Of a stretch of DNA of 64,000 nucleotides, positions 14,884-17,149 are shown piece after piece. Location of the stretch: the IMG/VR virus record IMGVR_UViG_3300007770_000001; one strand, 5' to 3'. The position numbers were made by a program, and so were the translations under genes. The stretch's first letter is position 1. The number at the start of each line of letters is the position of its first letter. The DNA comes from a virus (Duplodnaviria > Caudoviricetes). Below the pieces are notes generated by a model. The model was not told where the DNA came from. It saw only the letters and a list, made by a program, of their open reading frames with translations, and did no database searches.

Positions 14884-14911
14884 GTTTCCTCACTCCTCCC
14901 AGCGACGTAAC
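14884..14911 (+). promoter_or_regulatory. promoter-like motif copy
   Basis: GTTTCC-N14-GACGTAAC then AAGGAG and ATG 14936. Confidence 0.75.
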
Positions 14912-14935
14912 GGTAGGGAAGGAAGGAGAAACCTC

Positions 14936-15031
14936 ATGGCCCAGATCGCCGACCAGATCGCCACTCGCCTCCTCGCGGCCTCCCGCGCCTACTACGGTGG
15001 CCGCGAGCCCTGTGGGCTTTCAGGATTCTGA
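14936..15031 (+). pseudogene. orphaned 5' fragment of NAD-dependent DNA ligase (31 aa)
   Basis: MAQIADQIATRLLAASRAYYGG parallels [22 protein letters not shown] at 16052; truncated where the endonuclease gene begins. Confidence 0.8.
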
Positions 15032-15964
15032 AGCGTTTTGCGCTTTCCTTCTTGCCCAACGTCTTTTTTGGGATTCGCTCATTTTCCTGCGGGTCTCGGC
15101 GGATGTTACTTTCCCCGTATGGGTTTTCCGGACAGCTTCAGAGACCTTATTCCTGAAGTCTGGATCTTCCCATTGAGATACCATCTTTGCTCTCGCCGCT
15201 TCTCTCCGGGTTCCGTCGTCCTGGGACCACGCTTCCAGAGAGCGTTGTCGAACCCTTTCACGAATCGTATTGCCACCTTTCTCCCACCGTTCCCGTTGGG
15301 CGGTTGACATCTTCTGCCGAGACTCCTCGGAGTGAGTCCGCCCTTCCCAGTATTTGTTGCCTTGGTGTGCCTCGCTGATCTTTCTACGGGTCTCGGCAGA
15401 CACGGTTTTCCCTCGGTGGGCTGCTCCAATCTTCTTTTTGGTTTCCGCTGTGTGCTTTTTACCTGTGGCTGCATCTGTTATCCTTCGGAGGGCGTCTGGG
15501 CTATGCACATGACCCCTCATCCGTTCTCTAATCTGCTCCACATGAGATTCTGACAGCTTCCTGCCCGACATCGCTCTGCTAATCTTGGCTCGGGTCTCCG
15601 GAGTGTGGGGAATCCCTATTCGGATTCGGCCCTTGGGGCATATATTGTATCCGGTGGTATGGGGTCTGAGGCGGTCTAACCATTTCTGTTCCGACTGCTC
15701 TACTCCTTCCGGAGAAACCTTTTCGAGGACACTCACTGAGAATGTCTCCTCCCCGTATTTTTCCCAGGCTCGTTGGAGCTTTTGGGAGTGATGGGACCCT
15801 CTCCTGAGACTCCGGAAATGTCCCATTAGACGAGTCCTGATATTGACAGATCCTCCGACATACACTTTTCCGTTCAGGGTGTTGCTGATCTGGTAGACTC
15901 CCGAGCATTTCCGAGGGTCTCCCCCTACATCCCGTATCGCAGCTTCAATTGTGGGCACGTCCAT
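15020..15964 (-). mobile_element. free-standing GIY-YIG homing endonuclease with NUMOD3 repeats
   Basis: SGVYQISNTLNGKVYVGGS...R...H; repeated HT/S-xET(R/K)xKIS NUMOD3 units; visibly more AT-rich than flanks. Confidence 0.9.
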
Positions 15965-16005
15965 ATGATGCCTCTTGAGATAGGCTGTCTATTATTGTAG
16001 TACAG

Positions 16006-16033
16006 GTTTCTCTTTGGATTGCATAGACGTAAT
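16006..16033 (+). promoter_or_regulatory. promoter-like motif copy
   Basis: GTTTCT-N14-GACGTAAT then GAGGAG and ATG 16052. Confidence 0.75.
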
Positions 16034-16051
16034 AGGCTTAGAGGAGTTCTG

Positions 16052-17149
16052 ATGCCTACCGATATCCAGAACCTGGTTGACCGACTACTGACCGCTTCGC
16101 GTGCGTACTATTCGGGGGAGAGTCTTATCTCTGATGCGGAATACGATGCACTCGAGAACCAGCTGCGGAAGCTGGATCCGGATCACGAGGCGCTGAGGCA
16201 GGTGGGGGCTCCCACGGACAGCGGCTGGCCCAAGGTCCCCCACACCCGCCCCATGGGTTCTCTGAACAAGGCCCAGACCGTCGAAAACTTCTATGCCTGG
16301 GCGCGGAAGTACCCCGCCTCCGAGTACATTGCCACCGAGAAGCTCGATGGCATCAGCCTCTGCCTCGTGTATGAGAACGGCGAGTTGGTGGCTGCCCGCA
16401 CCCGGGGCGACGGCACTATCGGTGAGGACATCACTCGCAACGTCCGCATCATGCAGGGTGTCCCTCCCGTTATCGCGGAGAAGCGAACCACGAACATCCG
16501 CGCCGAGATCATCTGCCGGAAGTCCCAGTTTGCCCTTCACTTCCAGGGCGACAGCAACCCCCGGAACACGGCGTCCGGGACGGCCAAGCGCCACACCGGC
16601 TGGCAGAAGTGCCGCCACCTCGACGTGGTCGCTTACAACCTTGACGTCGAGGGCTACCGCTCGCTGAGCCGGACCGAGGAGCTGGACCTCCTGGTCGCCA
16701 TGAACTTCCAGGTCCCCAACGCCCTGGTCCGAAGCGCCGGTGGCGTTGTCACCATGTATGGTGACTACATCCACGGGACCCGTGCCGGCCTCGACTACGA
16801 CATCGATGGTCTGGTGGTTGAGATCAACACGACCGTCGACCGCGAGGCCCATGGCTCGCATGATATGCGTCCCCGAGCCGCCGTGGCATTCAAGTTCCCC
16901 CACGAGCAGGCCGAGACGATCATCCGTAACATCATCTGGCAGGTCGGGAACTCCGGCCGCATCACCCCCGTAGCCGTCTTCGATCCTATTCCCCTGGCGG
17001 GAGCTCAGGTCAAGCGCGCCTCCCTCCACAACGTCGCGCGGGTCCAGCACCTGCAGCTGGCGCCGGGCACTCGTATCCTGGTGAGCCGGCGCAACGACGT
17101 CATCCCGGCCGTGGAAGCGAACCTCGACCTGAACATTCGCGTCAGCTGA
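16052..17149 (+). CDS. ligA: NAD-dependent DNA ligase, N-terminal part (Ia, adenylation and OB domains)
   Basis: AYY...DAEYD, TEKLDG (KxDG), [36 protein letters not shown]. Confidence 0.95.

Follow-up and report, generated by a model that had tools for sequence, protein, structure and literature searches.

A ligase-linked homing endonuclease cassette as the probable source of a replaced ligase gene start in a marine phage

Why should a phage carry the beginning of its ligase gene twice, on either side of a homing endonuclease gene? The question is raised by a 64,000-nucleotide stretch of virus DNA (IMG/VR record IMGVR_UViG_3300007770_000001; this whole stretch is hereafter the window), which derives from a huge uncultured marine phage. 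An NAD-dependent DNA ligase (LigA) is encoded here as two genes. The first of these, the N-part, starts at 16052 and comprises 365 codons for domain Ia, the adenylation domain and the OB domain. Upstream of it lie an antisense GIY-YIG/NUMOD3 endonuclease gene and, beyond that gene, a second, short ligase-like start, here called the orphan. A preliminary description of this DNA had proposed these three elements, and direct reading of the sequence found the orphan unit, the endonuclease gene and the working start exactly where it had placed them (Table 1). We consider it probable that a cassette built around a ligase-specific GIY-YIG/NUMOD3 endonuclease replaced the 5′ end of the ligase gene, leaving the resident start behind as the orphan.

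The identity of the orphan was established with a ligase N-terminus profile that drew on 39 relatives and excluded the window's own protein. Across the six frames of the 64 kb, only two places matched this profile, the real start with 68.8 bits and the orphan with 17.3 bits (E = 2.6e-4); the next-best place in the window scored 5.7 bits. When aligned with the working start, the orphan was identical at 11/25 residues, including the series R-L-L-x-A-S-R-A-Y-Y-x-G. As DNA, the two starts are only 43% identical, the repeat finder paired no DNA repeat between the 14936-type and the 16052-type sites, and 9/10 of the shared non-Met codons are spelled differently. The ligase start, previously described as duplicated, is thus duplicated as protein and not as DNA. 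The last six codons of the orphan open reading frame (ORF) overrun the 3′ end of the endonuclease gene. Six-frame self-comparison of the window yielded noise only in place of further orphan gene starts, and a scan of 80 ligase loci and 110 endonuclease loci detected a second ligase N-terminus copy at just two loci, the window and L008 (described below). Judged from its sequence, the orphan encodes a true ligase N-terminus, preceded by a promoter motif and a Shine-Dalgarno sequence (SD) of its own.

The arrangement does not depend on a single assembly. It was found on 16-17 contigs by way of exact flanking proteins (ligase C-part, product of the 107-codon gene, ligase N-part), and the ligase protein is identical on a 338,860-bp metagenome scaffold and at least 15 further contigs. 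In an SRA word search, 100% of the stretch was recovered in six DNA runs of seawater or marine origin (two studies), and single Logan contigs from two studies cross all of it with zero differences. An assembly artefact can therefore be dismissed. When the contigs of four runs were compared, neither joints nor variants nor informative loose ends appeared, and the small extras proved to be other ligase genes. In run X6 (SRR9166044) the assembly is broken within the ligase body, where two contigs overlap by ~26 nt at 16788-16813. Other runs cross this point in one contig, it is not a cassette junction, and the break may reflect a low-coverage gap or a local variant.

Both ligase starts stand behind the motif GTTTC-N15-GACGTAA, which the preliminary description took for a duplicated promoter. 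Five exact sites were found in the window, where 0.01 were expected, together with a sixth site bearing one mismatch. All six (at 4223, 14884, 16006, 17150, 18664 and 27510) lie on the + strand and stand 19-27 nt ahead of an SD and an ATG, one of them preceding the second ligase gene (C-part). The motif is a general promoter class of the phage, presumably read by a phage-specific sigma factor or polymerase. Since it recurs six times before genes, the two ligase promoters cannot be called duplicates. Their spacers have nothing in common, and we therefore rejected the promoter as evidence of a duplication. No RNA run was found among the runs listed as holding the sequence.

It is codon style that sets the two starts apart. 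In the orphan, 23/25 codons end in G or C, giving a G+C content at third positions (GC3) of 0.92; the corresponding values are 0.855 for the ligase body, 0.56 for the endonuclease gene and 0.73 for window genes. Ligase codons 1-33 reach only 0.55 (18/33), and the 25 working-start codons that match the orphan reach 0.60. A changepoint in ligase GC3 was located at codon 33 (~16151; plausible range codons 30-46; permutation p = 0.0025), with 0.55 to its left and 0.85 to its right. By binomial test, the orphan is incompatible with an endonuclease-like composition (P = 9e-5) and fits the ligase body, while codons 1-33 are incompatible with the composition of the body (P = 2e-5) and equal to that of the endonuclease. 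These results agree with the earlier assignment of the orphan to the style of the ligase body and of the working 5′ end to that of the endonuclease. The AT-richer 5′ end is present as reported, with a boundary slightly upstream of the ~16200 then suggested. Nucleotide GC is 0.664 in the orphan unit, 0.525 over 15011-16150 and 0.647 in the rest of the ligase. Because GC is low throughout 15011-16150, one tract spans the endonuclease, the working promoter region and the first ~33 ligase codons; the working-ligase promoter motif falls in the region's lowest-GC stretch (0.40).

Could gene starts simply be poorer in GC3 than the remainder of genes? The 5′ drop of the window ligase is -0.32, larger than that of any of 53 control window genes. 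In these 53 genes the start differs from the remainder by -0.03 on average (sd 0.12); for 77 homologous phage ligases the mean difference is -0.04 (sd 0.077, minimum -0.18). A general weakness at gene starts therefore fails as an explanation, as neither set reaches -0.32. In the four endonuclease-linked ligases with enough sequence, codons 2-33 have a GC3 below that of the body by 0.14-0.32 and nearer to that of the endonuclease. The drop distinguishes linked from the 77 unlinked ligases (Mann-Whitney p = 7e-4) and is seen with or without an intact orphan.

The endonuclease gene (15020-15964) is the sole gene of its type in the window. Its product matches PF01541 (GIY-YIG; 35.3 bits against a cutoff of 22.6) and, in three stretches corresponding to C-terminal repeats, PF07460 (NUMOD3; 76 bits). 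A search of 1.84 billion cluster representatives returned two full-length matches (44-48% identity; 244.8 and 203.3 bits), the next match being partial only (170 bits), and a word-based search agreed with this exhaustive search on the two clusters. Two more members were recovered from IMG/VR and JGI contigs. The resulting clade (window, L008, L152, L089 and L199, where L152, L022 and L202 denote one contig) can be aligned over its full length, with 42-49% identity between the window's protein and the others. Residues Y24, Y35, R43, R45, H49, E92 and N107 are invariant in all five members; we take these seven to be the catalytic positions of I-TevI (two Tyr, Arg, His, Glu, Asn). No further members were found in GTDB genome contigs, and a second IMG/VR scan with the five-member alignment returned none besides L089 and L152. 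The next-best endonuclease cluster, P0242, was set aside; its contigs are only ~1.2 kb long and hold no ligase fragment.

In all five clade loci, the endonuclease gene is the immediate upstream neighbour of a LigA-family gene. A ligase was found near the endonuclease in 0 of ~175 loci of more distant GIY-YIG/NUMOD3 relatives, and an endonuclease of this kind stands directly upstream in only 1/78 IMG/VR loci of this ligase family. Such a patchy, one-site distribution is as expected of a homing endonuclease that homes to the ligase gene start. In L199 (5-1153, 2362-2889), a weak T4 RNA-ligase-1-like match and a SieB-like protein were detected just upstream of the endonuclease.

A second orphan was identified in L008, a 2-kb contig from an unrelated sample whose endonuclease is the nearest to that of the window (48% identity). 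Its order is a 37-codon ORF with a ligase N-terminus, then the endonuclease, then the working ligase start. The two L008 starts have 22/37 residues in common, 15 of these spelled differently, and GC3 falls from 0.78 (orphan) to 0.43 (working start). A related motif, GCTTA-N15-GAGTAG, precedes both. Since the L008 N-terminus is of another, lineage-specific type, this locus is an independent case and no copy of the window's. The L008 orphan breaks off inside the Tyr codon of S-D-A-V-Y and the window orphan 5-6 codons earlier, while the window changepoint lies just past S-D-A-E-Y-D, so that both orphan ends and the changepoint cluster at the most conserved motif of domain Ia. Conserved motifs of this kind are the usual targets of homing endonucleases. 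No intact orphan was found in L152, L089 or L199. Taken together, composition, the linkage of the clade to LigA and the layout of L008 support the proposal of the preliminary description that an endonuclease-linked cassette supplied the new promoter and start.

The leader of the endonuclease gene may hold a further trace of the ligase. Ahead of the endonuclease start, the window, L008, L152 and L199 all have the 10-mer TA(C/G)TACAATA, for which L089 has a variant; the window's copy, TACTACAATA (15993-16002), is unique in the window. Elsewhere in 201 loci it occurs only in two ligase genes, where it forms their Y-Y-N codons. Translated in frame, each of the five leaders yields Y-Y-N with a Pro correctly spaced behind it (window: YYNNRQPIS), and the leaders of different members keep different residues of the ligase consensus Y-Y-N-G-x-P-I-M-S-D. 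Position-specific scores against a Y-N-anchored background gave p = 0.03-0.19 each and ~0.002 combined, the combined value being only a guide because the five sequences are related. The 10-mer may be a -10-like element of the endonuclease, a decayed older ligase fragment, or both. If the leader is a ligase fragment, each member bears the trace of an in-gene insertion, and the window and L008 hold two generations of orphans.

How might such a locus have arisen? The cassette would comprise the endonuclease gene, the short leader of that gene, a promoter of the phage class, an SD and ~33 ligase codons from a diverged donor, these codons being fused in frame to the resident body near S-D-A-E-Y-D of domain Ia. 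The enzyme would cut endonuclease-free ligase genes at about codons 25-38, and the break would be repaired from a co-infecting phage bearing the cassette. On the right side, exchange would occur in or just after the conserved motif, which is shared even by diverged ligase genes. On the left side, the end would be joined non-homologously because no usable homology exists there, and this join would strand the resident gene start: its promoter, SD and first 25 codons, severed from the gene, would persist upstream as a non-functional orphan. As the lost gene start is replaced, the ligase would stay intact without an intron or intein, and the new start, spelled differently, is presumed to be uncuttable. 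Evidence that codons 1-33 were co-converted with the endonuclease gene is indirect: the five linked working starts show no visible mutual similarity, so it is composition that points to their movement together with the endonuclease.

This lack of similarity is one of several observations that weigh against cassette replacement. As proteins, the two window starts fit the ligase family equally (32.3 and 29.4 bits), and neither is significantly closer to the nearest relatives. Both orphan ORFs, in the window and in L008, are intact, which is unexpected for old neutral DNA. The cassette is present in every contig and run that holds this phage, and no close endonuclease-free relative was found, none being nearer than 58% protein identity in the collections searched. 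A single-protein IMG/VR scan for close relatives of the phage returned none, no DNA similarity to the window was detected among 50,697 phage records, and the best ligases in phage records are at most 36% identical. Finally, the endonuclease is inverted in the window and co-directional in the other four loci, so that either one more inversion or a separate insertion has to be assumed. If a block as in L008, made up of leader and endonuclease, were simply inverted, exactly the order of the window would result. The ends of the block show a 5-nt inverted match (CCTGT at 15009-15013, ACAGG at 16002-16006), which is within chance. A 7-nt direct repeat, TGTGGGC, occurs at 15011-15017, just outside the endonuclease stop, and at 15950-15956, in codons 3-5 of the gene; it is probably due to chance.

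Some other accounts of the two starts were weighed against the same evidence. One of them would add to cassette replacement and not supplant it, namely that the orphan unit has been kept as useful. It may provide a promoter antisense to the endonuclease that dampens its expression, ligase read-through, or a homology arm for homing. The promoter motif, SD and ATG of the orphan unit are intact, no terminator-like site was found within 14400-17400, and both known orphans are uninterrupted ORFs. However, 3/5 clade members have no intact orphan, and the window and L008 orphan peptides end differently, being alike only in their ligase homology. We regard a retained function as unlikely, though worth bearing in mind.

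Two starts would also be left if the ligase promoter and first codons had been duplicated in tandem within this phage, the copies had then diverged and the endonuclease had inserted between them independently. Consistent with such a history, the two L008 copies share a 6-residue N-terminal extension and a W-R pair found in no other relative, and both window copies have the same promoter class. On the other hand, the shared codons of the window are nearly all respelled, in opposite styles (GC3 0.92 vs 0.60), implying a long divergence in spite of which the orphan still has its start codon, SD and frame. Local duplication also leaves unexplained the low-GC3 tract continuous with the endonuclease, the 5′ drop in four linked ligases and the recurrence of the layout with a homologous endonuclease, and we hold it to be quite unlikely.

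The polarity might also be reversed, the working start being native and the orphan a foreign flank brought in on the far side of the endonuclease. Protein similarity cannot decide which start is native, and homing is known to co-convert flanks on both sides (Belle et al. 2002 and Liu et al. 2003, as cited in PMC2993671). Composition runs the other way: the orphan has the GC3 of the ligase body and is unlike the endonuclease (P = 9e-5), the working start is endonuclease-like and unlike the body (P = 2e-5), and L008 shows the same polarity as the window. Reversed polarity is accordingly very unlikely. Chance resemblance or an assembly chimera, for which the shortness of the match (25 codons) and the missing DNA-level repeat might speak, deserves practically no credence, given the profile E-value of 2.6e-4 with other window places at 5.7 bits or less, the placement of the orphan exactly behind a class promoter and SD, and the agreement of 16-17 contigs and the Logan contigs of two studies without differences.

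Cassette replacement is also open to a broader interpretation, which we offer tentatively and which has the balance somewhat against it: the cassette may belong to a natural 'home-and-rescue' element family of huge marine phages, which lands in the essential ligase gene at the domain-Ia motif and whose serial invasions are recorded at these loci. As such an element would bring a replacement expression unit (promoter, SD and ~33 recoded codons), homology would be needed on one side only, and it could jump between phages that share little beyond the ligase motif. The nested traces would be the YYN..P leader fragment in all five members and, in two of them, the intact outer orphan. Once the orphan was lost, an in-gene insertion would become a 'free-standing endonuclease next to its target gene'.

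Among known systems, the locus comes closest to the gene hybrids created by mobile endonuclease ORFs (mORFs), of which it would be the mirror image at the 5′ end and in a phage. Such hybrids have been described in fungal mitochondria, in atp6 of Allomyces macrogynus and in atp6, atp9, cox2 and nad3 of Glomus sp. (PMC3630166), and partial atp6 and cob duplications are likewise known from fungal mitochondria (PMC6279837). In mORF elements, a foreign C-terminal segment replaces the native one, which is left as an orphan, and the Glomus atp6 copies share 63.5% nucleotide and 91% amino-acid identity (PMC3630166). The window resembles these cases in that an endonuclease ORF lies at a gene end, a diverged copy is joined to the body and the displaced copy is orphaned, the two copies being alike as protein and distant as DNA. 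It differs in that the 5′ end would be the part replaced, whereas the mitochondrial cases concern the 3′ end, so that a promoter, an SD and a start codon would have to come with the cassette as well. Moreover, the host is a double-stranded DNA phage, the endonuclease is a separate antisense gene with no in-frame fusion, and the putative native copy is indicated by composition and not by comparison with an endonuclease-free sister.

Intronless homing in phage T4 is represented by SegF, SegG and mobE (Belle et al. 2002; Liu et al. 2003; Wilson and Edgell 2009; PMC2993671). That process shares with the window a free-standing gene of GIY-YIG type adjoining its presumed target, a flank that is carried along and a patchy distribution among related phages. 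T4 recombines both flanks homologously and leaves no orphan, whereas the window and L008 keep one. The survival of the resident start beside the imported one therefore calls for one non-homologous junction or an in-gene insertion. In the 'genes in pieces' or fractured genes of phages, split by endonuclease genes or by split inteins with an endonuclease (Dassa et al. 2009; PMC2677866), a conserved essential gene is likewise invaded by endonuclease genes and still functional. Unlike these, the window site needs no splitting, splicing or subunit assembly, as the lost piece is replaced. HomeR and cleave-and-rescue drives are designed Cas9 elements in insects (PMC7968924). They share the logic of the window element: the nuclease is aimed at an essential gene, and the part it disrupts is supplied anew in recoded form, presumably proof against cutting. 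The window element, by contrast, is natural, protein-guided and found in a phage, and the resistance of its rescue copy is a prediction. Full-text literature searches returned no published phage case of 5′-end replacement by an endonuclease cassette, a result that says no more than this.

If cassette replacement is correct, there would be a third harmless route into an essential gene besides introns and inteins, namely to replace the piece that is cut off. Some short 'hypothetical' ORFs beside endonuclease genes would be explained as gene fragments. Abrupt changes of codon style at gene starts would also find an explanation, as would free-standing endonucleases beside a target they no longer cut. 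The sequence encoding S-D-A-E-Y-D of LigA domain Ia becomes the candidate target of a new GIY-YIG enzyme family, and the locus would represent a natural counterpart of the engineered home-and-rescue drives.

Table 1. Features of the ligase region (window positions).
Feature	Position	Strand	Basis or remark
Gene of unknown function, 107 codons	14559-14882		left neighbour of the orphan unit
Class promoter motif GTTTC-N15-GACGTAA of the orphaned ligase start	14884-14910	+	exact motif match
SD of the orphan unit	14923-14929	+	sequence reading
Orphan ORF, 31 codons (ATG 14936, stop at 15031)	14936-15031	+	profile match, GC3
Ligase domain-Ia N-terminus, orphan codons 1-25	14936-15010	+	taken as the original start of the resident gene
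Left junction, 9 nt, from the last ligase-like codon of the orphan to the endonuclease stop codon	15011-15019		sequence reading
Free-standing GIY-YIG/NUMOD3 homing endonuclease gene, 314 amino acids	15020-15964	-	Pfam matches, GC3, clade alignment
Conserved endonuclease leader, holding TACTACAATA (15993-16002)	15976-16002	-	same 10-mer in relatives
Class promoter motif of the working ligase gene	16006-16032	+	back to back with the endonuclease leader
SD, then ATG, of the working ligase unit	16040-16046; ATG 16052	+	sequence reading
Working ligase codons 1-33, endonuclease-like composition, putative imported start	16052-16150	+	GC3 changepoint
Resident body of the ligase N-part (adenylation and OB domains)	16151-17149	+	Pfam, GC3 0.85
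Third class promoter motif, in the 52-nt spacer between the ligase genes	17150-17176	+	
Ligase C-part gene, 264 codons, HhH and BRCT	17202-17996	+	context, outside the cassette

The division of the ligase into two genes is a separate matter. Pfam matches on the N-part (16052-17149) were DNA_ligase_aden (143.7 bits) and DNA_ligase_OB (75.8 bits), with Nlig-Ia at 21 bits, under its cutoff of 27; those on the C-part (17202-17996) were BRCT (34.8 bits) and HHH_5 (27.3 bits). The split falls between the OB domain and the zinc-finger/HhH part, in the 52-nt spacer that holds a class promoter and SD. In the closest ligase relative (58% identity), a TnsA-like endonuclease gene lies exactly in this gap. 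Insertions of at least 650 nt occur there in 5/76 IMG/VR loci, 71 being fused (relatives cited for the split are P0003, L012, L015, L070, L071 and L088). The two-gene arrangement may be the scar of a lost endonuclease gene.

The L089 ligase (3882-6840) has a further interruption, at the K-L-D-G adenylation motif. It looks like a split intein, the N-part running ..DGAS/CFDGE.. and the C-part ..AHN/CGL.. (slashes mark the breakpoints), and a 326-codon gene for a DUF559/Vsr-like nuclease, with Pfam matches below threshold, lies between the halves. The 'fractured genes' described by Dassa et al. 2009 (PMC2677866) are similar.

Elsewhere in the window, which has ~61% GC and nearly all of its genes on the + strand, three further products were noted. 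A short release-factor-like protein is encoded at 12273-12995 (+), with the PCRF and RF-1 families found on the called 240-amino-acid product. A PLD-like nuclease-family protein (PLDc_2, 90.7 bits) is encoded at 13595-14296 (-), and a single ORF of 3631 codons occupies 44446-55341 (+).

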